Source of the DNA: Nibricoccus sp.
GTDB lineage: Bacteria > Verrucomicrobiota > Verrucomicrobiia > Opitutales > Opitutaceae
NCBI GenBank assembly: GCA_047602425.1
Contig: JASGHG010000001.1
Location: 4,384,001-4,448,000, forward strand
Length of the DNA stretch: 64,000 nucleotides
Direction of reading: 5' to 3'
A model generated the notes under the pieces. It searched no databases, was not told where the DNA came from, and was given only the letters and a program-made list of their open reading frames with translations. Made by a program: the position numbers and the translations under genes. Positions 7,555 through 62,420 of the stretch are shown one piece after another; the stretch's first letter is position 1, and every line of letters starts with the position of its first letter.

Positions 7555-7785
7555 CCCAAGGTCAGAAGCCGGAGGCCAGATGTCGGTTTCGGAGGTCGGA
7601 AGTCGGAAGTCAGAGTTCGGAGTGTGCAGAATGGAAAACAGAGGCCGGAGACCGGAGAACAAACGTGATCATATTTGTTAAAGAAGCGAGCGTCCGAAAA
7701 GCAAAAGACCGCGAAGCATGAAGGCTCGCGGTCTTATTGTTTTCAAATGCTGGTATCCGGCATCTGGCTTCTAGCCTCTGGTTCG
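7555..7785. repeat. Intergenic degenerate heptamer tandem repeats in inverted arrangement
   Basis: GGAGGTC GGAAGTC GGAAGTC AGAGTTC... on the left; complementary CTGGTAT CCGGCAT CTGGCTT CTAGCCT on the right. Confidence 0.6.
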
Positions 7786-11333: not shown

Positions 11334-11543
11334 TTACTGCGTTTTATATTTCCCCGAATCTTCGGCCACCGACAAATCCTGCCGCGTGGTCTTTTGCGCC
11401 TGAGCGGTGGCTTGTTTCAACCTCAGGCCGAGTTCGTGCAACTCCAGCGCCCGTAAGATCCGCTGACCGGGGGTGAGCTTGAGCATAGCTTCGCGGGAGG
11501 CTCTTGCCGCAGCTTCGAAGTCGTGCTTTTCGGACGGATTCAT
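11334..11543 (-). CDS. Small hypothetical protein, putative partner of the adjacent nucleotidyltransferase
   Basis: MNPSEKHDFEAAARASREAMLKLTPGQRILRALEL...; starts 10 bp after the NTase stop; LTPxQR pattern. Confidence 0.55.
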   Translation of the reverse strand: MNPSEKHDFEAAARASREAMLKLTPGQRILRALELHELGLRLKQATAQAQKTTRQDLSVAEDSGKYKTQ

Positions 11544-11553
11544 AGAGCGTGTT

Positions 11554-12066
11554 TCAAGAAACACCAGACGCATCGGGGTGCAACTCCCTCAGTACCCGTA
11601 TATCTTCCTGATCCTTGGGACGGCCAGCATCCTTTTTCATCGCGAGCAAGAGGTCCAACGGCACGACAGGCACCACTACACCGGTAAACAACTCTGCCTT
11701 GGCCGCTTTTTCGTAGGCTGGTTCGAAAGCGAATGGTTCGGTTACAAAAAGATCGACAGGAATATCAAGAGGGTCACCGGTGCGCATTTGAAAAACGAGC
11801 ATGCCCTTCTCTTCGATCCAGCGTTTCCGTATACCGGCTTCTGCATAGTCAGCGGCGTTTACCGGAACTGCCGGTTTATAGCCGAGTGCGACCAACGACT
11901 GAATGGCATTGAGCGCATTCTCGCGCTCCAACGCGACGACAAGATCAATGTCATTGGTTGCCCGGCTATGTCCGTGCGCGGCCACAGCCAAACCGCCCAC
12001 CAGCAGATAACGAACGTCGTGTTGGTTGAGGCTAGCAAAAACACTTTTGACCGTATCGAGAAACAT
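11554..12066 (-). CDS. Nucleotidyltransferase (DUF6036/AbiEii-like superfamily)
   Basis: YLLVGGLAVAAHGHSRATNDIDL and C-terminal LLAMKKDAGRPKDQEDI motifs. Confidence 0.8.
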   Translation of the reverse strand: MFLDTVKSVFASLNQHDVRYLLVGGLAVAAHGHSRATNDIDLVVALERENALNAIQSLVALGYKPAVPVNAADYAEAGIRKRWIEEKGMLVFQMRTGDPLDIPVDLFVTEPFAFEPAYEKAAKAELFTGVVVPVVPLDLLLAMKKDAGRPKDQEDIRVLRELHPDASGVS

Positions 12067-14024: not shown

Positions 14025-15005
14025 TCACCGGTATTGTTGCGTCAGGCGTCGGACGGCGGCCTTGATGCTTTTGCGGAGCTCGGCGGGGGCGAGGACTTCG
14101 GCGTCGGAGCCCCAGCTCAGTATCCAACTTTCAACTTCAGGGAGCGCGCCGAGTTTCATGCTGAGTTCGACGCCGCCGTTGGGCAATTCGAGGAGGGCTT
14201 GCGAATCGTGCCAGACACGCTCACGCACGCGGTCGGCGACTTTGGCGGTGAAACGCACGCGCACCTGGTAGTTGCCGCTGCCGCCGAGCACGCCGAGGGC
14301 ATTGGAGAAAAAGTTTTCGGGCGAAAAATCCTGGGGACGGGAGAACGTCGTCTTCGTGGTGCGAACGTCCGCGATGCGGGGCAGGGCGAAGGTGCGCAGG
14401 GCCTTGCGTTCGACGTCGTGGCCGACCAGGTACCAGAGATTTTGGCGGTGAGATAAATGGTAAGGTTGAACCGAGCGGCGCGACGCGCGGGCATCGCCGG
14501 GCTTGCGATAGTCGAAGGTGACTTCCAGTTGCTTGAGCACGGCGGTGCTGAGGGTGTTGAAGACGACGAGATCGGCTTTGCCGAGGCCCATGTTTTTGAA
14601 CGATACGGCGCTGAGTTCCTCGGCGGGCGAAAAGGAAATGCGATCCTTGAGTCCTTCAGTGAGTTTATCGAAGGCGATTTCAAGCTGCCGGTGAAAGGGT
14701 GTGCCTTGATATTGCTCGACAGCGCGTCGCGCGACGAGCAACGCCATGAGTTCGCCCTCGGTGACTTCCACGGTGGGAAACGAACTCACCGGGTGCGTGT
14801 AGCGGTAGGCGTTGAGCTGCGCGTCGAATTCGATCGGGAGGTCGAGCTGGTCGCGCATATAGGCGATGTCGCGAACAACGGTTTTGCGCGAAACTTCGAG
14901 GTCGTGCATGAGCTGCGTGCAGTTGGTCATGGCTCCGCGCCGCAGGTCCTCGTGGATGCGCAGCATGCGTTCTAGAGGGGGCCGGGAGCGTCCGCGTGTG
15001 ATCAT
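14025..15005 (-). CDS. HTH-WYL-WCX transcriptional regulator (PafB/DriD-like)
   Basis: N-terminal HTH LEVSRKTVVRDIAYMRD, RSVQPYHL...WYLVGHD...RTFALPRI, C-terminal WILSWGSDAEVLAPAELR. Confidence 0.92.
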   Translation of the reverse strand: MITRGRSRPPLERMLRIHEDLRRGAMTNCTQLMHDLEVSRKTVVRDIAYMRDQLDLPIEFDAQLNAYRYTHPVSSFPTVEVTEGELMALLVARRAVEQYQGTPFHRQLEIAFDKLTEGLKDRISFSPAEELSAVSFKNMGLGKADLVVFNTLSTAVLKQLEVTFDYRKPGDARASRRSVQPYHLSHRQNLWYLVGHDVERKALRTFALPRIADVRTTKTTFSRPQDFSPENFFSNALGVLGGSGNYQVRVRFTAKVADRVRERVWHDSQALLELPNGGVELSMKLGALPEVESWILSWGSDAEVLAPAELRKSIKAAVRRLTQQYR

Positions 15006-15026: not shown

Positions 15027-15065
15027 AGGGTGGGACAGCTAGTGACCCACCCTGGGTGGTATTGT
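15027..15065 (+). promoter_or_regulatory. Palindromic operator plus -10-like hexamer between the WYL gene and the divergent gene
   Basis: AGGGTGGGACA-GCTAG-TGACCCACCCT (15027-15053), TATTGT at 15060-15065, ATG at 15072. Confidence 0.7.
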
Positions 15066-15071
15066 CAACGC

Positions 15072-15698
15072 ATGAACATGAATACCACCTCCAAAAAACT
15101 GCTCACCCGCTCGATCGAAATCATCTGGTCTCACTATGGCGAACGCTACCGCGTCGACAGCGATATGAAATTTTACCGCGAAAGCGACGAGGGCTGGGTC
15201 AACTGGCAGCCCGATCCCTCGACGGCGATCTTCTCCTCGGCGGCCGACGGCATCTCGGAAACGCGCTGGTCGGCTTTCCTCGAATTCGTTCCGACGGCGG
15301 AGCGGCGGCTGCTCGAAATGTTCGACGTGGGCCGCGCCGGCGTGCTGGCGGTGGTGGCGCTTTGCCCGGGGCTGGTGGCGGATTTGCTGGCGACGCCGGC
15401 ACTTGCGCCCTTCGTGGCCGAACATGCGCGGTTGCGCGGGACCGAAACGCGTTGGGAAGAAATCGCGGCAGTGCACAGTCGCGGTGGCGTTTACGCGCTG
15501 CTCGAATGGCTCGGTCTGCCGGCCTCGCGTCAGACGTTGACGATCTTGCAGAAGATTGCCGAACCCGATCTCGCGCGCCGTTTGCTCGAACCGATCCGCG
15601 CGTCGCTGTGGGAGCCGGAGACAATTTGGTTCCTCCAGCACACGCCTACGCTGACCGAACGCGCGCTCACGCACCACTGCGATTGCGTGGCGGCGTGA
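15072..15698 (+). CDS. Hypothetical protein divergent from the WYL regulator
   Basis: 208-aa ORF with protein-like composition filling the gap between the WYL gene and atzF. Confidence 0.7.
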   Translation: MNMNTTSKKLLTRSIEIIWSHYGERYRVDSDMKFYRESDEGWVNWQPDPSTAIFSSAADGISETRWSAFLEFVPTAERRLLEMFDVGRAGVLAVVALCPGLVADLLATPALAPFVAEHARLRGTETRWEEIAAVHSRGGVYALLEWLGLPASRQTLTILQKIAEPDLARRLLEPIRASLWEPETIWFLQHTPTLTERALTHHCDCVAA

Positions 15699-15707
15699 GC
15701 GATTTCC

Positions 15708-17399
15708 TCAACGTGCAGCGAGGAATGCCCGCCAGCCGCCGAACGAGGTGACGTCGCGAGCGTTTGCCACGGCGGCGGCTTCGCAGAGGAAACTCTGCAC
15801 GGTCGAGCCGTCGTCGAGCGTGACGGTGCCGATGCCAAGCGGACTCGGAATGTTGGAAACGAAATGGCCGTAACCCGCGACGGGGACGTTCCAGACTTCG
15901 ACTTCAATGGGCGCGCCGCCTTCGACGACCCGGATCAGTCCGGGTTTGGGCGGCGTGGTGCCGGGCAGGGCGAAGAGTTTGTAGGTGGGAGCCGTTTTGG
16001 TCGCGCGGTCGAGGGTCGCGCCGAGCTGGGTGAGTTGCCAGTTGAGCGGGAGTCCGCTGAGGTGCGCGCCGCAGACGGCAAGTTTAATCGTGCGGCCGGC
16101 AGATGGCAGGGAGCGTTGCGGCGCGGTTTCGCCGAGAAATTTTGCGCCGAGGCGGAGCACGCGATCATCGCAAAATGCGGGAGCGACGAGCGTAACGCCC
16201 CAAGGCATTTTGTTTGGCAAAAAGCCCACGGGAACGGCGACGGCACAGAGATCGAATAGGTTCAGGTAATTAGTATAGGTGCCGAGGTTCGAATTGAGAC
16301 GGATGGGATCGGACTCGACTTCGGCGACGGTGTAGACCGTGCCCGTGGTGGGCGTGAGCAATACGTCGATGTCGGCCCAAACGGCCTCGGCTTGGCGGCG
16401 GAGCGCAGCGAGTTTGTAGGCGGCCTCGAAGGCGGACGTGGCAGTGAGGGCGCGCGCGCTTTCGATGATCTGGCGCGTGACGGGATGCAGCGCGGCGGGT
16501 TGGCTCTCGATGAAAGGGCGGATGGCCGCATAACGCTCGGCGACCCACGGTCCCTCGTAGAGCAAGCGGGCCGCGGCGAGAAACGGCGTGAAGTCGATTT
16601 CGACGATTTTGGCGCCGAGCGAACGCCAGCGCGCGATGGCGGTGGCAAAAAGTTCGGCGGCGGCGGCGTTGCCGAAAAATTCGAGTTGGTCGGCGCGCGG
16701 CACGCCGATGCGAGGCGGCCAGACTTCATCGATCACCGGCGGAGTGGCGGGGCGGCTGTATGGATCTTCCGGATCGTAGGCGGCAGCGACGGAGAGAATT
16801 TCGGCGGCGTCGGAAATTGTGCGTGTGAAGATGGAAACGCAGTCGAGTGTGCGGCAGGCTGGAACCACGCCGCGGGTGCTGAGGAGGCCGCGCGTGGGTT
16901 TGAGGCCAACGAGGTTGTTGAAGGCGGCGGGAACGCGACCGGAACCGGCCGTGTCGGTGCCGAGGGCAAAATCGCATAAACCAGCCGCCACCGCCACGGC
17001 GGAGCCGGAGCTGGAGCCGCCGGGGATGTAAGCTGAGTTGAACGGATTTACGGGCACGCCATACGGTGAGCGCACGCCGACGAGGCCGGTGGCAAATTGG
17101 TCGAGATTGGTTTTGCCGAGGGGAATCGCTCCGGCATTGACGAGCCGTTGCACGACAGGAGCGGAAGTGGAGGGCGTGTACGCGAAATCGGGGCAGGCGG
17201 CGGTGGTGGGCACGCCAGCGAAGTCGATATTGTCCTTGATCGCAAACGTCAGACCGCGCAGTGGAGCGGGACCGAAAAGTTTGGCCGCGGCATCGGCGAG
17301 TCCGAGCACGTGCTCGCGGCACAGGCGCGAAATCCAGACGGGGTCCTTTCCGCGGGCGTCGAGGCGGGCGAGAGTTTCGGCGATGGGTGAAGGGGCCAT
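15708..17399 (-). CDS. atzF: Allophanate hydrolase
   Basis: AIKDNID, GKTNLDQFATGLVGVRSPYG, GGSSSGS, GTDTAGSGRVPA, C-terminal AVCGAHLSGLPLN. Confidence 0.95.
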   Translation of the reverse strand: MAPSPIAETLARLDARGKDPVWISRLCREHVLGLADAAAKLFGPAPLRGLTFAIKDNIDFAGVPTTAACPDFAYTPSTSAPVVQRLVNAGAIPLGKTNLDQFATGLVGVRSPYGVPVNPFNSAYIPGGSSSGSAVAVAAGLCDFALGTDTAGSGRVPAAFNNLVGLKPTRGLLSTRGVVPACRTLDCVSIFTRTISDAAEILSVAAAYDPEDPYSRPATPPVIDEVWPPRIGVPRADQLEFFGNAAAAELFATAIARWRSLGAKIVEIDFTPFLAAARLLYEGPWVAERYAAIRPFIESQPAALHPVTRQIIESARALTATSAFEAAYKLAALRRQAEAVWADIDVLLTPTTGTVYTVAEVESDPIRLNSNLGTYTNYLNLFDLCAVAVPVGFLPNKMPWGVTLVAPAFCDDRVLRLGAKFLGETAPQRSLPSAGRTIKLAVCGAHLSGLPLNWQLTQLGATLDRATKTAPTYKLFALPGTTPPKPGLIRVVEGGAPIEVEVWNVPVAGYGHFVSNIPSPLGIGTVTLDDGSTVQSFLCEAAAVANARDVTSFGGWRAFLAAR

Positions 17400-17410: not shown

Positions 17411-17494
17411 ATTAGTAATTTGTAGTTGGTAGTTTGTAGTTGGTTTTTGACGAAGGGCAGCTTTGACGAACTACTAATTTCAAACTGCCAATTA
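17411..17494. repeat. Inverted heptamer (GTAGTTG/GTAGTTT) repeat hairpin between uca and atzF
   Basis: GTAATTT GTAGTTG GTAGTTT GTAGTTG ... AACTACT AATTTCA AACTGCC AATTAC. Confidence 0.75.
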
Positions 17495-20400
17495 CACTGC
17501 CGTTGCGGCGGCGATTGGCTTGATGACGACGAGTGGATCGCCGGCTTGCACGGGTTTGCCTTCGGCGCAGAGGACCTGTGTGACCTCGCCTGCGCCGGTG
17601 GCGAAGACGGAAATTTCCATTTTCATGGATTCGAGGATGACGAGAGCTTGATCGCGCGTGATGCGGTCGCCGGGCTGGACGTTGATCTTCCAAACGTTGC
17701 CGGGAACCTGTGCGACGATGGCGGTATGGCCTGGCGGGAGCGCGGCATGTTCGGCGGGGCCGGTGGAGGCTTCGCTCTCGGCGGAAAAGTTGAGCTGGCC
17801 GGACGCTTCCCAGCGTTTGCGCTCGGCTTCGAACGATTGCTGCTGGTTCGTCTTGAAGGCGGTGATGGAGGCGGCGTTATCGCGAAGGAATTTCCGATAG
17901 TCGCGCAGGCGAAATGTCTCGTGGTCAATCTTGAGCTTGTAACGGCCGAGCGGGAAATCCTGGCGGAATTTCAACAACTCCTGGGCACTGACCTCGTGGA
18001 ACTTAATCTGGTCAAAGAAGCGCAGCAACCACGGCTTACCGCCAGTGAAGTCAGAGGTTTGCCGCCAGCGGTTCCACATCTGCACGGTGCGGCCGATGAA
18101 CTGATAGCCGCCGGGACCTTCCATGCCATAAACGCACAGGTATGCGCCGCCAATGCCGACGGCGTTCTCGGGCGTCCACGTGCGAGCGGGATTGTATTTC
18201 GTGGTAACGAGGCGGTGACGCGGATCGACAGGCGTGGCGACGGGTGCGCCCAGATAAACGTCGCCAAGGCCGAGAACGAGATAGTTTGCGTCGAAGGCGA
18301 TGCGCTTCACGTCGTCGATGGAGTCGAGGCCGTTGATGCGGCGGATAAATTCGATATTGCTCGGGCACCACGGCGCGTCCTTGCGGACGGTCTGCATGTA
18401 TTTTCGGATGGCGAGGAGTGTGGACTCGTCTTCCCACGAGAGCGGCAAGTGGACGATGCGCGTGGGAACTTCCATATCGTCGAGAGCAGGAAGGTGAACC
18501 TCGGCGTCGATCAATGTCTCCATCAGACGTTCGAGCGGAAGCACGCGGCTGTCGAAGTGAACCTGAAGCGAACGGATGCCGGGAGTGAGATCGAGGATGC
18601 CGGGCGTGTGGCTGTCGACAAGCCAGTCCATCAAGGCGTGAACGCGGAAGCGAAGTTCGAGGTCGAGGACGGCGGGGCCGTATTCGATCAGCAAATACTT
18701 ATCGCCGGCGCGCCGGTAGACGACGGCGGGCAAATCGTCGCGAGGCGGAATGGTGTGGAGGATGGAGGAGGCAGTGGTTGGTAGTTGGTAGTTGGTGGTT
18801 GGTGCGGACGCAGGCGTGGCTTTGGAAGTTTTACCAATTCCCAAATCCCAACGACCAATTGCCCCGGCTCGTTGCCGGCCGGGAATCAAGGTCTCGATCT
18901 GCGCTTCGTGGACCGCTTCGAGTTCGCGGGCCTTGGCGGCGGTGACGGGCCGGAACCGGACTTTGTCGCCAGGCTTAAGCTGGCCGACTTTCCAGAGATC
19001 GGCGGTGATGATCGTCGCGGGGCATACGAAACCGCCGCAGCTCGGGCCGTCGGGACCGAGGATGATCGGCATGTCGCCGGTGAAATCGATCGCGCCGATT
19101 GCGTAGGCGTTATCGTGGATGTTGGACGGATGCAGGCCGGCTTCGCCACCGTCGGTGCGCGCCCAGCGCGGTTTTGGGCCAATCAGGCGGACGCCGGTGC
19201 GGGCGGAGTTGAAGTGAACCTCGTAGGTCGCGGAGAAAAGATCGGCGATGTCTTCGTCTTTGAAAAAATCGGGCGCACCATGCGGACCGTAGAGGACGGC
19301 GATGTCCCATTCGCGGGTATATGTTGGAACGAGGGCGGCCGGGAGTTTGCGGAGCGCGGAGGAGGTAGTTGGTAGTTGGGAGTTGGAAATTGGTGCGGAC
19401 GCAGGCGTAGGCGAAGGGTTTTCACCAATTACTAAAAACGAATTACCAACTACGGTTTGAGCGAAGTGAAGCACGTCGCCAGCGCGCAACGCACGTCCAG
19501 CGTGGCCGCCGAAGAGGCCGAGCGTGAAGGTGGCCTTGCTGCCGAGGTAATCGGGGACATCGAAACCATGCTGAATCGCCAAATAGGCGCGCATGCCGGC
19601 CTCGGTGACTGCACCGACGCGGAGGGTTTGGCCGCGTTTCACGCGGAAGGCGCGCCAGAAAGTCACGGGCTTGTCGTCGAGTGTCGCGGACGTGGCCGCG
19701 CCGGTCAGGGCGACGATGGCAGAAGTGTTGAAGCGGAGCGTGGGACCGCTGAGGGTAATTTCGAGCCCGGCGGCGGAAGCGGGATTGTCGACAAGACGAT
19801 TGGCTAGCCGGAACGCGAGGGCATCCATCGGTCCGGAGGGAGGAACGCCGACATCCCAATGCCCGAGGCGGCCGGGATAGTCCTGCACGGTGGTTTGGGT
19901 TCCGCCGTCGAGAACCTCAATGGTTGGTGCGGAGTAGGGAAGTTTTTCGAGATACCGCGTGGTGACTTTACCGGCGCGGAACCCTTCGGAGGCGAGAATC
20001 TGGCGCAAGTAGAGCAGGTTGGTTTCGAGGCCGGCGACGCGCGTTTCGGCGAGCGCCTGAGCGAGGCGGTTGAGCGCTTCGTCGCGTGTCGAACCGCGCG
20101 AAATCAGTTTCGCGATCATCGGATCGTAGTACGGGCTGACTTCGGAGCCACGCTCGACCCAGGTTTCAGTACGCAAGCTGTGCGGAACGACAAACTCGGT
20201 GAGCACGCCGGTGGCGGGTTGGAAATTTTTGCCAGGATCCTCAGAGTAGAGACGGACTTGGATCGAGGCGCCAAAAGAGCGGCGCTGAAAATTCGTGAGG
20301 TCAAGTTCGCCAGCGGCCTGCTTGACCATCCACTCGACAAGATCGATGCCGGTGACTTCCTCGGTCACGCCGTGCTCGACCTGGAGGCGGGTGTTAACTT

Positions 20401-21262
20401 CGAGAAAATAGAATTTGTTTGTCGCGTCGTCGAAGACGAATTCGACGGTGCCGGCGGACTCGTAGCCGGCGGCGTGGCCGAGTTTCTCGGCGCAAGCAAG
20501 TAGTTCGGCACGGACGTTTTCGGGCAGGCCGGGTGCGGGCGTTTCCTCGATGATCTTTTGGTTGCGACGCTGGATGGAGCATTCGCGCTCGCCGAGGGCG
20601 ACGACGTGGCCGCGTCCATCGCCAAAAATCTGCACTTCGATGTGACGGGCTCGCTCGACGTATTTTTCGAGGAAGAGACCGCTCTCTTTGAAATTGGCGC
20701 GACTGAGGCGATCGACGCGGGCGAACGCGGGTTCGAGCTCAGCGGCGTTCCAACAGAGTTGCATGCCGATGCCACCGCCGCCGGCCGTGCTCTTGAGCAT
20801 GACCGGATAACCGATGCGCTCGGCTTCGCGCAGCGCGGTGGCGACATCGGGCAAAAGTCCAGTGCCGGGAAGAAGCGGAGCGTTTTCTTTTTGCGCGATT
20901 TCGCGGGCGGTGTGCTTCAGGCCGAAGCGACGCATCTGATCGGGTTTCGGGCCGATGAACACGATGCCAGCGGCAGCGCAGGCTTCGGCGAAGCCTGGAT
21001 TTTCCGAGAGAAAACCATAACCAGGATGTATCGCCTGGGCGCCCGTCTGCTTGGCCACCTCAAGGATTTTTTCGATGACGAGATAGCTTTGGGCGGCTGG
21101 CGCAGGACCGATCAGAACAGATTCATCGGCCTCTGCAACGTGGAGCGAGCCGACATCGGCTTCGGAGTACACGGCAACGGACTTGATGCCCATTTTGCGC
21201 AGGGTGCGCTCGATGCGGCAGGCGATGGCACCACGGTTGGCGATGAGGACTTTGGTGAACAC
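17492..21262 (-). CDS. uca: Urea/guanidine carboxylase (biotin-dependent)
   Basis: Biotin carboxylase (IANRGAIA, HPGYGFLSEN, EVNTRLQVEH), carboxyltransferase (GLHPSNIHDNAY, KYNPARTWTPENAVGIGG), biotinyl ESMKME; GTG start. Confidence 0.96.
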   Translation of the reverse strand: MFTKVLIANRGAIACRIERTLRKMGIKSVAVYSEADVGSLHVAEADESVLIGPAPAAQSYLVIEKILEVAKQTGAQAIHPGYGFLSENPGFAEACAAAGIVFIGPKPDQMRRFGLKHTAREIAQKENAPLLPGTGLLPDVATALREAERIGYPVMLKSTAGGGGIGMQLCWNAAELEPAFARVDRLSRANFKESGLFLEKYVERARHIEVQIFGDGRGHVVALGERECSIQRRNQKIIEETPAPGLPENVRAELLACAEKLGHAAGYESAGTVEFVFDDATNKFYFLEVNTRLQVEHGVTEEVTGIDLVEWMVKQAAGELDLTNFQRRSFGASIQVRLYSEDPGKNFQPATGVLTEFVVPHSLRTETWVERGSEVSPYYDPMIAKLISRGSTRDEALNRLAQALAETRVAGLETNLLYLRQILASEGFRAGKVTTRYLEKLPYSAPTIEVLDGGTQTTVQDYPGRLGHWDVGVPPSGPMDALAFRLANRLVDNPASAAGLEITLSGPTLRFNTSAIVALTGAATSATLDDKPVTFWRAFRVKRGQTLRVGAVTEAGMRAYLAIQHGFDVPDYLGSKATFTLGLFGGHAGRALRAGDVLHFAQTVVGNSFLVIGENPSPTPASAPISNSQLPTTSSALRKLPAALVPTYTREWDIAVLYGPHGAPDFFKDEDIADLFSATYEVHFNSARTGVRLIGPKPRWARTDGGEAGLHPSNIHDNAYAIGAIDFTGDMPIILGPDGPSCGGFVCPATIITADLWKVGQLKPGDKVRFRPVTAAKARELEAVHEAQIETLIPGRQRAGAIGRWDLGIGKTSKATPASAPTTNYQLPTTASSILHTIPPRDDLPAVVYRRAGDKYLLIEYGPAVLDLELRFRVHALMDWLVDSHTPGILDLTPGIRSLQVHFDSRVLPLERLMETLIDAEVHLPALDDMEVPTRIVHLPLSWEDESTLLAIRKYMQTVRKDAPWCPSNIEFIRRINGLDSIDDVKRIAFDANYLVLGLGDVYLGAPVATPVDPRHRLVTTKYNPARTWTPENAVGIGGAYLCVYGMEGPGGYQFIGRTVQMWNRWRQTSDFTGGKPWLLRFFDQIKFHEVSAQELLKFRQDFPLGRYKLKIDHETFRLRDYRKFLRDNAASITAFKTNQQQSFEAERKRWEASGQLNFSAESEASTGPAEHAALPPGHTAIVAQVPGNVWKINVQPGDRITRDQALVILESMKMEISVFATGAGEVTQVLCAEGKPVQAGDPLVVIKPIAAATAV
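18772..18862. repeat. In-frame heptamer-hairpin insertion in uca (copy 1)
   Basis: GTGGTTG GTAGTTG GTAGTTG GTGGTT-GGTGCGGACGCAGGCGT-...-CCAATTC CCAAATC CCAACGA CCAATTG. Confidence 0.75.
19364..19453. repeat. In-frame heptamer-hairpin insertion in uca (copy 2)
   Basis: GTAGTTG GTAGTTG GGAGTTG GAAATT-GGTGCGGACGCAGGCGT-...-CCAATTA CTAAAAA CGAATTA CCAACTAC. Confidence 0.75.
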
Positions 21263-21267
21263 GGGAA

Positions 21268-21299
21268 AGTAGTTGGTAGTTTGTAGTTGGTAATTGGTA
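21268..21299. repeat. Left heptamer arm flanking the four-helix-bundle gene
   Basis: GTAGTTG GTAGTTT GTAGTTG GTAATTG GT. Confidence 0.8.
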
Positions 21300-21359
21300 C
21301 GGGGATGCTCAATCTTTTGTTGCTCTCGTGCATTGGTGCAGGCTTCCTATAAATCCACT

Positions 21360-21737
21360 ATGGCGACTTTTGTATTGGATGAACTGAGGGTTTACCGCAT
21401 GGCGGAGGAATTGGCGGACGCGACGTGGGATTTGATTGGTGATTGGGCTCCGTTTGCTAAGGAAACCGTTGGCAAGCAGCTGGTGCGCGCGGCCGATAGC
21501 GTCGGTGCAAACATCGCCGAGGGTTACGGACGAGCGTCGCCGGCCGACAATCAACGTTTCGTGAGAATGGCACGCGGATCTCTTTACGAAGTTAGGCATT
21601 TTCTGCGCCGAGCGGATAAGCGAGGGCTGGTGGATAAGACGTCGAAGCAGGCATTGCAGAAAGTTCTCAGTGAATTGCTCCCGGGATTGAATGCATACCT
21701 TCGTTCCCTGCGAAATGGCGGGGATGGTGACAAATAG
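21360..21737 (+). CDS. Four helix bundle protein (23S rRNA IVS protein / Avd-like family), antisense to the operon
   Basis: ELRVYRMAEEL, KQLVRAADSVGANIAEGYGR, RFVRMARGSLYE. Confidence 0.9.
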   Translation: MATFVLDELRVYRMAEELADATWDLIGDWAPFAKETVGKQLVRAADSVGANIAEGYGRASPADNQRFVRMARGSLYEVRHFLRRADKRGLVDKTSKQALQKVLSELLPGLNAYLRSLRNGGDGDK

Positions 21738-21768
21738 GAATTTTACGGAGGTGCACACAGGTGTTTCG

Positions 21769-21797
21769 ACCAACTACCAAATACAAACTACTAACTC
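21769..21797. repeat. Right (inverted) heptamer arm flanking the four-helix-bundle gene
   Basis: ACCAACT ACCAAAT ACAAACT ACTAACT. Confidence 0.8.
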
Positions 21798-21798
21798 C

Positions 21799-22491
21799 TC
21801 AATCCGACGCATGGGAGGGCTTGGCATTCCAAACCAAAACTTCGATTGGCGTCGGGTTGTAGGCGTTGCAGGGGTTGTTGAGTTGGGGGCAATTTGAGAT
21901 GAGGCAGATGACGTCGCGTTCGGCGCGGAGCTCGACGTAACGGCCCGGCCCTGAAACGCCGTCTTCGAACGTGAGGCGACCGTCGGGCGTGACGGGGACG
22001 TTCATGAAGAAGTTGATGTTGCAGGTGATGTCGCGTTTGCCCCAGTCATGTTTTTCGAGATGGAAACTGTGGCATGAGCAGGAAATTTCCTGGGCGCCGC
22101 GAATAAAACTGTCGCGGCAGGCGTGCATGTGCTCCTTTTCAAGGGCGTAGCGCATGGTGTTGCTTTCGCGCGAGCAGGCGCCGCCGAGCGTGTCGTGGCG
22201 ACCGCAGGTGTCGGCAACGATAGTGAGGAGCGCGTCGCCTTCGGTGGAAACGAGGCGCGTTCCGGTTGTGAGGTAGAGAGCACCTTGGTGACGAATCGTA
22301 TCGGAGGCGCTGTAGCGGTTGGCTGGTTCGTGTGCGTCGTAGAAAAGTGTGTCGGCCGCCTGATTTCCCTCGAGATCGACGATGCGGAGGGTTTGGCCCT
22401 TTTTAACGACGTAGGAAAAATAGTCGCCGGCGAGCACGACCTTACGGAATGCCGCGGTGGATGGGTCGAGTTTGCTTTCGGTGAGGGTCAT
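21799..22491 (-). CDS. cgdB: Urea carboxylase-associated protein 1 (DUF1989), carboxyguanidine deiminase subunit B
   Basis: [54 protein letters not shown]. Confidence 0.88.
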
Positions 22492-25223: not shown

Positions 25224-25285
25224 TTATGAAAAGATAAAGGGTTGTTGGCGATGGGTGATGGGTCCTGTTACTGGCTATTCTCTTT

Positions 25286-28163: not shown

Positions 28164-29162
28164 TTACTTTTTCTTTAGAACTTCAGCAGTGAGCGACGCG
28201 TCGATGTACGAAGGAACGTTCTGCGCTTCTTTGTAGACGCCATTGGTTACGTTGAATTCGTCGGCGATTTTCGAAGAGCCGATGAGCGAGTCGAAACCCT
28301 TGGTCTGAGCCGAGAGGACTTTACCGCCTTCGGCGAGGGTGAGGAACTGGGTGCCGGGCATGAAGGAAGCGTACTCCTTGGGATCCACACCGGCGCGGGC
28401 AGCCATGATCTTGATGCCGTCTTCACGGGTCTTCGGATCTTTCAAATAAGCCACAACCTTGTCCCAGACGGAAACGAACTTGACCCAATCGGCACGGCGC
28501 TGGGCGAGACTCTGCGGGGTGACGACGACGGCGTCGTAGATCAACCCGGGTTCATTGGCGCTGGTGTAAATGGCCTTGGAGCCGGGGACGGCCTTGAGAG
28601 CGGCCCCGGAATTGGGCTGCCAGGCGCCAATGGCGTCGACCTGTCCGGACGCGAGCACCTGCGGCGTCTGATTTGTGGGGGTGGGAACCAGTTCGAGATC
28701 TTTTTCGGTGAGGCCCACTTTCTTCAGGCCGTTGAGCAGGAGAAGATGTTCAACGAAGCCGATCTCGATGCCGATTTTTTTGCCCTTGAGGTCTTTCAAC
28801 GAGGCGATGCCGGGCTTGGCGACGATCATGTCGTTACCATTGGAAAAATCGGTCATGAGGATCATGACGTTTTTCGCGCCGTTGGCGCCCGTAACGAGGG
28901 CGTCGCCGTTGGTTACGGTAACGGCGTCGCATTTACCGGCGGTGAAAGCTTCCATCGACGGGCCGTACTCGAACCAGAGCAGTTCGACTTCGACGCCGGC
29001 TTCTTTGAACCAACCCTTTTGTGCGGCGATTTCGAGAGCGGTCCAGCCGGGCCAGTCCGAGAAGGCGACTTTGAGTGGTGCGGCGGAAGCGAGGCTGGTG
29101 ATGAGAACGAAGAGCGTGGCGAAAACAGACAGACGGCGGCGGAGGGAGGAGGTGGTGATCAT
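28164..29162 (-). CDS. ABC substrate-binding protein (NMT1/THI5-like, urea-carboxylase-associated type)
   Basis: Signal peptide, [20 protein letters not shown]. Confidence 0.88.
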
Positions 29163-29170
29163 TGGAGGCA

Positions 29171-29225
29171 GTGTTACTTTTTGAGCAAAACGTGTTACGC
29201 CTGTCTCTCAGCACGGGCTATGCCA
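29171..29225 (-). promoter_or_regulatory. Sigma54 promoter with downstream GTGTTAC-N14-GTGTTAC operator upstream of the ABC operon
   Basis: Minus strand TGGCATAGCCCGTGCT (29225-29210); half-sites at 29171-29177 and 29192-29198. Confidence 0.72.
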
Positions 29226-29327
29226 CGAATGGCCGCATGAATATTTCCACGCTTAGTGTAGAGGACGCGGCTCTCAGGTGTGGTGCTTGCCTCCGAGAAG
29301 ACCGGGAGGGTAGCTTGCGGTGATTGT

Positions 29328-44880: not shown

Positions 44881-44906
44881 TGAAGCAAGGAGACAGAAGT
44901 CAGGAG

Positions 44907-46816
<1,910 letters not shown>

Positions 46817-61444: not shown

Positions 61445-61927
61445 ATGAATCTGCCGAAACGAAAAGTTTTGCCGCATGAGATTCCAAACTGGGTGCAGCC
61501 GGGGGAACTCTTTTTCATCACCATTTGCTGCCAGCAACGTGGTGCCAATCAACTTTGTCATCCGGAGATTGCCCAGGCGCTTATCGATTCTGTCCGTTTC
61601 CGACAAGAGCGCGGGAACTGGTATACAACGCTATTTTTGCTCATGCCCGATCATTTGCATGCGTTGATTGCGTTTCCGCTGGAGAACACAATGAAAACAA
61701 CGGTTGCCAAGTGGAAGGAATTTACCGCGCGGCAAATGGGTATCCTTTGGCAACGCGGTTTCTTTGATCACCGATTGCGGAAGGCGGAAAGCCTGGATGA
61801 GAAGGCTCATTACATCCGTATGAATCCAGTGCGACAAGGTTTGGTCGCAAAGCCGGAGGATTGGCCATGGGTTTGGGAAGGTAGGGACGGCCAGCCTTGG
61901 CCGTCCGTCAACGTCGCCCGCGATTGA
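61445..61927 (+). mobile_element. rayT: REP-associated tyrosine transposase (HUH Y1, RAYT/TnpAREP)
   Basis: LFFITIC, HUH motif MPDHLH, WQRGFFDH, YIRMNPV..GLV, W.W; flanked by REPs. Confidence 0.9.
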
Positions 61928-62420
61928 CTCGGGCCTGAACGAACGACCGTGCGGTGCAAACCAGCGTGCGGTGTCGGTTGGTTTATGCATTGCCAAAGGC
62001 TGTCCCGAGGTGACGGTCGGCCCGGCGGTCCGACCCTACCACATTGGTGCGGGCGGAGTGGTTTGGAAGGTAGGGAAGGCCAGCCTTGGCCGTCCGTCAA
62101 CGTCGCCCGCGATTGACTCGGGCCAGAACGGACGACCGTGCGGTGCAACCCAGCATGCGGTGTGGGTTGGTTTATGCATTGCCAACGGTTGTACCGAGGT
62201 AACGGTCGGCCCGGCGGTCCGACCCTACCACATTGGTGCGGGCGGAGTGGTTTGGGAACGTAGGGACGGCCAGCCTTGGCCGTCCGTCAACGTCGCCCGC
62301 GATTGACTCGGGCCTGAACGAACGACCGTGAGGTGCAACCCAGCATGCGGTGTCGGTTGGTTTATGCATTACTAAAGGTTGTACCGAGATGACGGTCGGC
62401 CCGGCGGTCCGACCCTACCT
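61870..62420. repeat. Tandem ~190-bp REP-doublet units downstream of the RAYT (about 3 units)
   Basis: GTAGGGA(C/A)GGCCAGCCTTGGCCGTCC at 61881, 62070, 62260; near-identical linkers. Confidence 0.95.

Follow-up and report, generated by a model that had tools for sequence, protein, structure and literature searches.

We suggest that the 64-kb window, by which we mean the whole stretch of DNA analysed here, carries a likely mobile unit, a cassette of about 530 bases in which a single gene of the four-helix-bundle (4HB) type stands between two inverted arrays of 7-base repeats. From the sequence comparisons described below we give an even chance to the reading that this cassette acts as a unit at the DNA level, that the gene-less hairpins in its neighbourhood are likely copies of its two ends, translated and not excised, and that the encoded protein probably binds its own arrays of four to five units. 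The features concerned are the following.

15708..17399, - strand: allophanate hydrolase, host gene downstream of the hairpin at 17415 (ORF and profile match)
17415..17495, no strand: cargo-less hairpin between uca and allophanate hydrolase, arms 17415-17442 and 17468-17495
17492..21262, - strand: uca, urea carboxylase (TIGR02712), 1256 aa, host gene (profile match)
18774..18862, - strand: in-frame hairpin S2 in uca, about residues 801-830, net +57 nt relative to the same-genus allele L002
19365..19453, - strand: in-frame hairpin S1 in uca, about residues 604-633, net +69 nt relative to L002
21269..21296, + strand: uca-side cassette arm, four GNARTTK units, G/T-rich on the + strand (sequence and regex coordinates)
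21360..21737, + strand: 4HB gene, PF05635/TIGR02436, 125 aa, antisense to the operon (profile matches)
21771..21798, - strand: UAAP2-side cassette arm, four units, G/T-rich on the - strand (sequence and regex coordinates)
21799..22491, - strand: UAAP2, urea amidolyase-associated protein 2 (TIGR03424), upstream operon neighbour (profile match)

The cassette is built as arm, gene and arm and lies between UAAP2 (which we take to be the gene called cgdB) and uca, both on the - strand; one arm begins directly after the UAAP2 stop, and the GTG start of uca lies a few bases beyond the end of the other. An earlier note on this DNA had described an antisense gene enclosed by inverted heptamer arms at this junction and had supposed that the element is free of a transposase. 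Coordinates and profile scores agree with the former, and the ORF list and profile searches leave the 4HB gene as the sole cargo. No Rfam match was obtained anywhere in the 64-kb window, the site being the UAAP2-uca junction and not a 16S or 23S rRNA gene, and a scan of 21200-21900 gave one weak sigma-70 site against 0.4 expected, and 0 terminators.

With TIGR02436 the encoded protein reaches 82.9 bits against a cut-off of 24, and with PF05635 86.3 bits against a cut-off of 33.8. To our knowledge structures of PF05635 members have been solved and no function has been assigned to them. The predicted structure consists of four helices (pLDDT 90) and superimposes on 2GSC (Xcc0516) with TM 0.82 and rmsd 1.1, and on Avd, the accessory protein of diversity-generating retroelements (DGR), with TM 0.70-0.75 at 10-11% identity, so that the kinship to the intervening-sequence (IVS) protein and to Avd that the earlier note had named agrees with the fold comparisons. 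Homologues 2GSC and 2RLD each have five chains, and by this analogy the protein is predicted to be a homopentamer; no recognisable catalytic site was found in it. In comparison with 9 orthologues synonymous changes exceed non-synonymous ones, and by this measure the cargo is under purifying selection.

Besides the fold and the pentamer, the latter by homology, the protein shares with Avd (PMC6182149, PMC10053308) a possible scale of binding, as Avd binds a defined stretch of its RNA, Sp 4-30, which is about the length of one cassette arm (PMC6182149, in the portion available). It could be proposed that the pentamer partners a reverse transcriptase (RT) in trans, which copies the hairpin RNA into DNA. 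The fold match, the targeting of RT by Avd to its RNA (PMC6182149, same portion), a preference in cis and the presence of one RT in this genome would be in line with this. We hold it to be the least probable of the alternatives, a very remote one, as no RT adjoins the cassette and, unlike for Avd, no linked RT or other DGR part was seen alongside the 4HB gene, whose neighbours serve urea catabolism: the only RT match of this genome is at C1:925276, 3.5 Mb away. PF00078, the RT profile, was matched in no more than 55 of 151 genomes, and repeats bloom in genomes where none was found, among them G004 (2 contigs, 100% complete, 162 array matches), G121 and G129.

Returning to the cassette as a DNA-level unit, relatives carry empty alleles at both the cassette and the hairpin sites, as the earlier note had led one to look for in orthologous operons. 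A full cassette at a new site was not found, since all 13 cognate genes of the family sample adjoin uca or UAAP2; judging by sequence comparison, the full cassette has long been established here. A related cassette has been flipped between its arms (L146 as compared with L140 and L143, same flanks, orthologous site), an inversion which would be a behaviour of DNA. When the distances of the 4HB gene and of Uca were compared over 10 orthologous loci, Mantel rho was 0.10 at the protein level (p 0.27) and 0.19 at the DNA level (p 0.12), values which do not separate vertical descent from lateral swapping at the junction; a tblastx grouping of neighbourhoods was left unused, 52 of the 58 loci having fallen into one group.

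The sister hairpins without cargo that had been reported in the same operon were located, one at 17415-17495 and two within uca. The first unit of the former supplies the TAA stop codon of uca, and the whole hairpin is missing in L002. S1 and S2 are in-frame inserts, likewise absent from L002, and the reading frame of uca is unbroken across both; S1 substitutes for a part of the old linker. Their loops hold a 14-base motif (19395-19408 in S1, 18804-18817 in S2), which has exactly these 2 copies in the 5.16-Mb genome and is found just inside the cassette arm in the relative G065, with a shorter match in G099. Since this motif is common to S1, S2 and the cassette end of a relative, both hairpins are likely gene-less derivatives of the cassette, and they are likely translated through; the window's own cassette is without the motif, so the present-day cassette is not their direct template. 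In-gene hairpins occur in 7 of 10 loci with the cassette as against 1 of 20 without, and extra operon hairpins in 6 of 8 extended loci with it as against 1 of 8 without. The genome G048 may serve as an internal control: it has a cassette with another cargo, GxxExxY, at the UAAP2-uca junction, and the hairpin at its linker S2 has arms of the same type as that cassette.

It would be logical to ask whether the element benefits its host, as a domesticated RNA- or DNA-binding regulator whose arrays are operators or signals of stability or translation coupling across the operon. In favour of this, the gene is conserved and keeps to one junction, its 16 rows forming one clade (SH-aLRT 100), arrays stand at many junctions of the same operon, and similar roles have been suggested for the cyanobacterial STRR hairpins (PMC2670836, in the part accessible). 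We regard such regulation as improbable: the occurrence is patchy, with 7 changes along the Uca tree, 20 of 30 loci are without the cassette, different operon junctions are filled in different genomes, the L015 copy has an internal stop, and the in-gene inserts and genome-wide blooms look selfish.

According to the earlier note the element loops out of mRNA as an IVS-like stem. In this reading the operon mRNA would form a stem between the arms, at which RNase III excises the cassette and hairpins or processes the transcript. In the predicted mRNA fold the two arms do form a stem some 30 bp long, and the long stem of terminal inverted repeats is as in an IVS; it is formed on both strands (z -3.4 in the 4HB sense, z -1.3 for the operon mRNA). 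The host encodes RNase III, and for Coxiella the cleavage of an S23p IVS with heptamer repeats by this enzyme has been observed in vitro (PMC4990558, from the part at hand). Arm-to-arm covariation is modest and exceeds that of shuffles (25 cells versus 13.9±3.2; the score was reached in 2 of 500), which suggests that pairing, or conversion between arms, matters too. We nevertheless take the IVS-like reading to be quite unlikely, and did not see the looping out of mRNA supported. In-frame stops are avoided in the in-gene arms (0 of 13 units versus 16 of 39), as expected for translated arms, and a cut without ligation would destroy the uca mRNA. G·U-compatible mismatches in the 16 orthologues number 20 on the mRNA strand and 23 on the other, next to 54 hard mismatches, and over 92 cassettes 78 and 78, without bias to the mRNA strand; a further wobble count, 47 versus 56, is weak, the host-strand calls being a noisy heuristic. 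All four stems, of the cassette and the hairpins, fold more stably on the non-mRNA strand.

The arms themselves are degenerate, with 78% of 28 positions in Watson-Crick pairs among the 16 orthologous cassettes: all 64 cells of position 1 are paired, as against only 112 of the 192 cells of positions 2, 4 and 7, and by these alignments the repeat motif is conserved more strongly than pairing. A fixed-register arm test gave 58%, compared with 48% between cassettes and 50% out of register; it replaced a unit-shuffling test (330 versus 242±9), which was set aside because degenerate edge units bias it.

The association of heptamer arms with the 4HB family, which the earlier note had named as a point to check, is borne out: period-7 arrays are present on both flanks of 97 of 106 family-related loci and of 1 of 325 control windows. 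Four of the five family genes in this genome are armed, each with its own heptamer, and 122 of 184 arms carry 4 or 5 units. The window's 4HB subfamily was represented by 73 cassettes of several phyla, of which 71 have G at unit position 1, 67 have T at position 2 and 72 have T at position 6, and unit similarity climbs from about 3.5 to 6.3 of 7 as protein identity rises. Repeat type thus seems to track protein subfamily, for which reason we infer that the protein binds its own repeat, although such tracking is equally expected from shared descent alone.

This genome has 109 period-7 arrays, compared with 3, 17, 36 and 6 arrays for periods 5, 8, 10 and 11. A complementary arm lies within 1.2 kb of 63 of 166 period-7 arrays (76 of 830 in random placements), and 31 of 32 two-arm sites face inward like the cassette ends. 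Local spread, as had been proposed, is upheld for the window's repeat type and fails as a general rule, because the three other heptamer families of this genome are dispersed and several relatives have genome-wide blooms. For the window's family, permuted matrices at the scan cut-off used gave 12-60 hits against 21 observed, so that weak sites are noise which inflates the denominator of the local-clustering test. Likeness to integron attC sites, whose pattern is GTTRRRY, was dropped, as the other three heptamer families of the genome do not fit.

At least five exact triple-unit matches occur in 12 of 13 genomes with the cognate 4HB gene and in 11 of 138 without it; Fisher values, here as in the other contrasts, are overstated because kin are not independent. 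Among the exceptions, 219 exact matches were counted in G129 (98% complete, 50 contigs), whose operon carries six arrays or hairpins and in which no cognate gene was found, 10 further genomes have arrays without the gene, and G079 has the gene with matches in its own arms only.

Such arrays without a cognate gene could also be explained by MITE-like ends moved by an unlinked transposase (for example Y1/RAYT), with the 4HB gene, like GxxExxY genes, as a passenger. Miniature inverted-repeat elements (MITEs) and the palindromic elements found in coding genes of Rickettsia (RPE) are short palindromic non-autonomous units, derived by a logic of internal deletion. The operon hairpins resemble them as short palindromes and in-frame inserts in protein linkers, with inverted ends common to a longer parent and with filled and empty sites; the genome has 4 matches to PF01797; GxxExxY, a cargo unrelated to 4HB, has the same arm layout in 5 of 5 cases; and junctions exchange cargo, pheS-pheT (read by eye) holding GxxExxY in this genome and 4HB in G056. 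The cassette differs from MITEs and RPE in its tandem-heptamer arms and in that the putative parent is without a transposase. We consider the MITE-like explanation unlikely, since in different phyla the type of the arms goes with the cargo protein, the distribution of arrays over genomes follows that of the cognate gene, the cargo is under selection, and S1 replaces linker sequence; no target-site duplication is visible by eye, the nearest empty allele being only 87% identical in protein.

For the DNA-level cassette we propose that the pentamer would hold the two cassette ends together, each of its subunits reading roughly one heptamer of a strand that is unpaired or extruded. Host recombination or repair might then invert the cassette, delete its middle and leave a hairpin, or place an end-pair at another site, at first close to the gene and in some cases throughout the genome; pasting nearby would probably be due to the binding of the encoded protein to its own arrays. 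The only inserts to be retained by selection would be those at junctions of genes or within flexible linkers of proteins.

In the literature searched only the heptamers of the Coxiella IVS come close to an armed 4HB cassette, tandem heptamers having been noted there upstream of the ORF (PMC4990558, in the text available). The ORF-bearing 23S rRNA IVSs of Coxiella burnetii and Leptospira belong to the same S23p/PF05635 family, are sporadically distributed and have an ORF between inverted arms, with a stem of about 28 bp (PMC4990558, same text). Unlike them, the cassette lies outside rRNA, antisense in a protein-coding operon, has degenerate heptamer arrays as arms on both sides, and has gene-less derivatives, two in frame and likely translated, with no sign of excision. 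We may even suggest, tentatively and as a wider claim that we believe somewhat less than the local one, a widespread transposase-free class of selfish DNA, in which a non-catalytic pentamer would read, and co-evolve with, its own 7-base repeat at about one unit per subunit and would seed bacterial heptamer hairpins, including new translated enzyme linkers; ORF-bearing rRNA IVSs would be members of this class for which rRNA was the landing site, and the GxxExxY cassettes, whose units have 9-10 bases, would form a class parallel to it.

Cyanobacterial STRR and the GGGAATC pairs of Xanthomonas consist, like the arms, of 7-base units, mostly four per array and often in convergent inverted pairs between genes; in the portions available (PMC4692102, PMC2670836) they are, unlike the arms, linked to no protein or cassette, and 'helix bundle' occurs 0 times in that of PMC4692102, which describes the bacterial excess of 7-base repeats as unexplained. 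The present locus ties PF05635 to bacterial heptamer repeats, one protein with one heptamer type. If the cassette seeds repeats, it would be a cause for this excess, and a pentamer that recognised the repeat of its own cassette would amount to a natural protein-to-repeat code and to mobility without a transposase. The locus offers filled and empty alleles of one junction together with derivatives that carry a traceable end motif, and in it repeat DNA has been turned into a likely translated linker of an intact enzyme gene, uca.

Hairpins, as we use the word, are inverted heptamer pairs without a gene, and in the window they accompany the four-helix-bundle (4HB) gene as follows.

21360-21737, + strand: 4HB gene (PF05635/TIGR02436 protein), antisense between UAAP2 and urea carboxylase (uca)
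17415-17495: gene-less hairpin, GNARTTK unit
18774-18862: gene-less hairpin, GNARTTK unit (S2, inside uca)
19365-19453: gene-less hairpin, GNARTTK unit (S1, inside uca)

The 4HB gene is flanked by four GNARTTK units per side in inverted orientation, and period 7 is strongly over-represented among repeats of this genome. Sequence and profile match agree with the earlier note, which described an antisense 4HB gene within inverted heptamer arms, together with gene-less sister hairpins. The predicted model of the product is a four-helix structure resembling Xcc0516 (2GSC; TM 0.82) and BT_0352 (2RLD); its weaker match to Avd (TM 0.70-0.75) is in line with the kinship proposed there.

Inverted heptamer arms were found on four of the five TIGR02436 genes of the genome, with a different unit for each and at sites between housekeeping genes; the fifth (G000:C1:4665768-4666094) has a heptamer array within its coding sequence and none in the flanks shown, and its orthologues in the genomes G129 and G038 are flanked by arms built from the unit type of that array. 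Our arm survey covered 113 loci (30 best family matches, the best 80 of 486 relatives and 3 others), of which 106 were counted, 7 with incomplete flanks being left out and near-duplicates kept. Period-7 arrays on both flanks, the feature that was to be looked for around family members, occurred at 97/106 loci vs 1/325 shifted windows, and an inverted match of at least 21/28 at 90/106 vs 3/325 shifted and 49/300 cross-paired controls. Arm length was 4 or 5 units in 122 of 184 arms. Unit positions 1, 2 and 6 are G, T and T in 71, 67 and 72 of 73 subfamily cassettes from several phyla, and units differ in the other 19 cassettes, outside the window's subfamily. Judged from these sequences, the heptamer unit type follows the 4HB protein; shared descent alone could produce such a tendency, though synonymous positions approach saturation even between the closest 4HB orthologues.

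We compared the UAAP2-uca junction at the 30 uca loci with the highest scores in 151 family genomes. It holds an orthologous antisense cassette in 10 of them and a gene of GxxExxY type, flanked by roughly 9-base arms, in two (L024, by tblastn, and L022, by eye); in three it is bare or nearly so, and the remainder contain short spacers or other kinds of hairpin. The same junction holds the top 18 matches of the all-genome scan and 13/13 cognate 4HB genes of the family sample (151 genomes); no jump of a whole cassette to a new site was seen among these 18 matches and 13 genes. The 16 cassette genes tested form one clade, and the cassette state is scattered over a quick Uca tree (7 changes vs a shuffled mean of 8.6). 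This single junction, single clade and scattered state mark the complete cassette as a long-standing occupant of the site, subject to loss or replacement. One cassette gene (L015, genome G047) is interrupted by a stop codon within the last helix, and its operon has four sister hairpins.

More distant copies at the junction (L094, L095, L112) stand in sense orientation. When locus L146 is compared with L140 and L143, the flanks match reversed and the cassette forward, with the switch point within the arms. Cassettes can thus invert, and inversion may also explain the antisense orientation in the window.

The S1 and S2 hairpins lengthen poorly conserved Uca linkers by a net 69 and 57 bases relative to L002, an allele of the same genus that lacks them both; this allele and the bare junctions provide the empty sites that the earlier note wished to see in orthologous operons. 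Their loops have in common a 14-base motif with exactly two occurrences in the genome. In G065 this motif borders the inner side of the cassette arm, where G099 has a shorter match; in-gene hairpins of G054, G065 and G131 bear it as well. Motif plus arm was found in 6/151 genomes, including the cassette-less G003 and G138, and the window's own cassette is now without it. In-gene hairpins of GNARTTK type occur in 7/10 loci with the cassette vs 1/20 without, and extra operon hairpins in 6/8 vs 1/8 extended loci, at junctions that differ between genomes. G048 combines a GxxExxY cassette at the junction with a hairpin of that cassette's arm type at S2. The hairpins are likely derived from cassette ends. 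Where S1 is empty, the linker is uniform (54-66 bases), and such alleles are spread across the tree, a pattern more in keeping with repeated gains or patchwise exchange than with a single gain and many losses.

Single-arm heptamer-like arrays of other families stand in frame in the S2 linker of L002, L006, L007, L010, L022 and L023, which points to S2 as a repeated insertion site. L003 has a REP-like palindrome of GTAG type inserted in frame at the S1 linker. In G138, a gene read by eye as sulfite reductase flavoprotein (L182) bears the motif and one arm in frame, and also a second heptamer-like array.

The local spread claimed before holds for the GNARTTK unit, with 3 of 14 other sites at most 5 kb from the 4HB gene (0.03 expected), and not for three other heptamer families of this genome, which are dispersed (1/21, 0/43 and 0/75 within 5 kb). 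The closed genome G054 has 4/10 sites within about 7 kb by our own count. At least 5 exact triple-unit matches were found in 12/13 genomes with the cognate gene vs 11/138 without, where the cassette's own arms contribute up to about four; in these local and genome-wide counts kin are not independent. Blooms reach 45-162 matches in several of the carriers. In G129 the same heptamer has 219 genome-wide exact matches, the UAAP2-uca junction is bare, and neither the cognate gene nor an RT was found. A partnership with an RT, as for Avd, is the least probable of the mechanisms considered, being weakened by the finding of an RT in only 55/151 genomes and in neither G004 nor G121.

IVS-like RNA processing, in which the element would loop out of mRNA as previously proposed, seems to us rather improbable. 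The host genome has RNase III, both strands are predicted to fold with the arms paired, and covariation in 16 orthologous cassettes (25 cells vs 13.9±3.2 in shuffles) supports pairing or conversion between the arms. However, only 78% of cells are Watson-Crick, variable positions agree in 58% vs 48-50% in controls, and G·U-compatible mismatches are in no excess on the mRNA (20 vs 23 on the other strand, with 54 hard mismatches). A perfect GNARTTK array has a stop in every frame of its G/T-rich strand, and in 14 in-gene arms stop-making letters were kept in 0/13 dangerous-phase units vs 16/39; the in-gene hairpins thus look translated, which speaks against their looping out.

We propose, with about even confidence for and against, a DNA-level cassette whose product, a predicted pentamer, would bind the cassette's own heptamer arrays and so enable host recombination or repair to invert the cassette, trim it and re-insert its ends. 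A transposase acting in trans is unlikely, though ahead of RNA processing, and domesticated regulation is more doubtful than either.

RPEs and MITEs serve as comparison systems, and we regard the cassette as a variant that connects these MITEs with IVS elements and with heptamer repeats. The class is real and widespread, and no description of it as a class was found in the literature searched, largely without subscription journals. Within that search, the Coxiella IVS study (PMC4990558) was the sole link of heptamers to this protein: there, tandem heptamers precede an S23p ORF inside an RNase III-cut stem. Further papers describe convergent four-unit heptamer pairs in Xanthomonas, resembling the cassette arms but with no protein attached (PMC4692102), STRR hairpins of unknown function (PMC2670836), binding of a defined RNA stretch by Avd (PMC6182149) and the relation of PF05635 to Avd (PMC10053308). 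The locus contributes sequence evidence suggesting that hairpins descend from cassette ends and are translated.

A parallel class appears to be formed by GxxExxY (TIGR04256) cassettes, whose protein we take to have a nuclease-type fold. All five such genes of the genome (G000:C1:1210100, 1214802, 1622126, 3800207 and 4331872) have near-perfect inverted arms with units of roughly 9-10 bases and lie between housekeeping genes. Junctions swap cargo: at one that was identified by eye as pheS-pheT, L161 (G056, same genus) has a 4HB cassette, and this genome has the GxxExxY cassette at G000:C1:1214802.

Guanidine riboswitches are often upstream of urea carboxylase operons; at 29162-29280, upstream of this one, no riboswitch reached the Rfam gathering score. 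Other-family heptamer arrays of the window lie at 7561-7782 (two arrays in inverted orientation with about 170 bases between them), 25241-25269, 44888-44910 and 45489-45522. A RAYT/BIME-like cluster lies at 61547-62419, where a weak Y1 transposase match (PF01797) runs straight into 189 bases of tandemly repeated GTAG-type palindromes. Adjoining the urea operon, an HTH/WYL-like regulator (by eye; 14025-15005, - strand) is divergent from an unknown ORF (15030-15698, + strand). A nucleotidyltransferase with a weak AbiEii match (11334-12066, - strand) possibly forms a toxin-antitoxin pair with the small ORF downstream.
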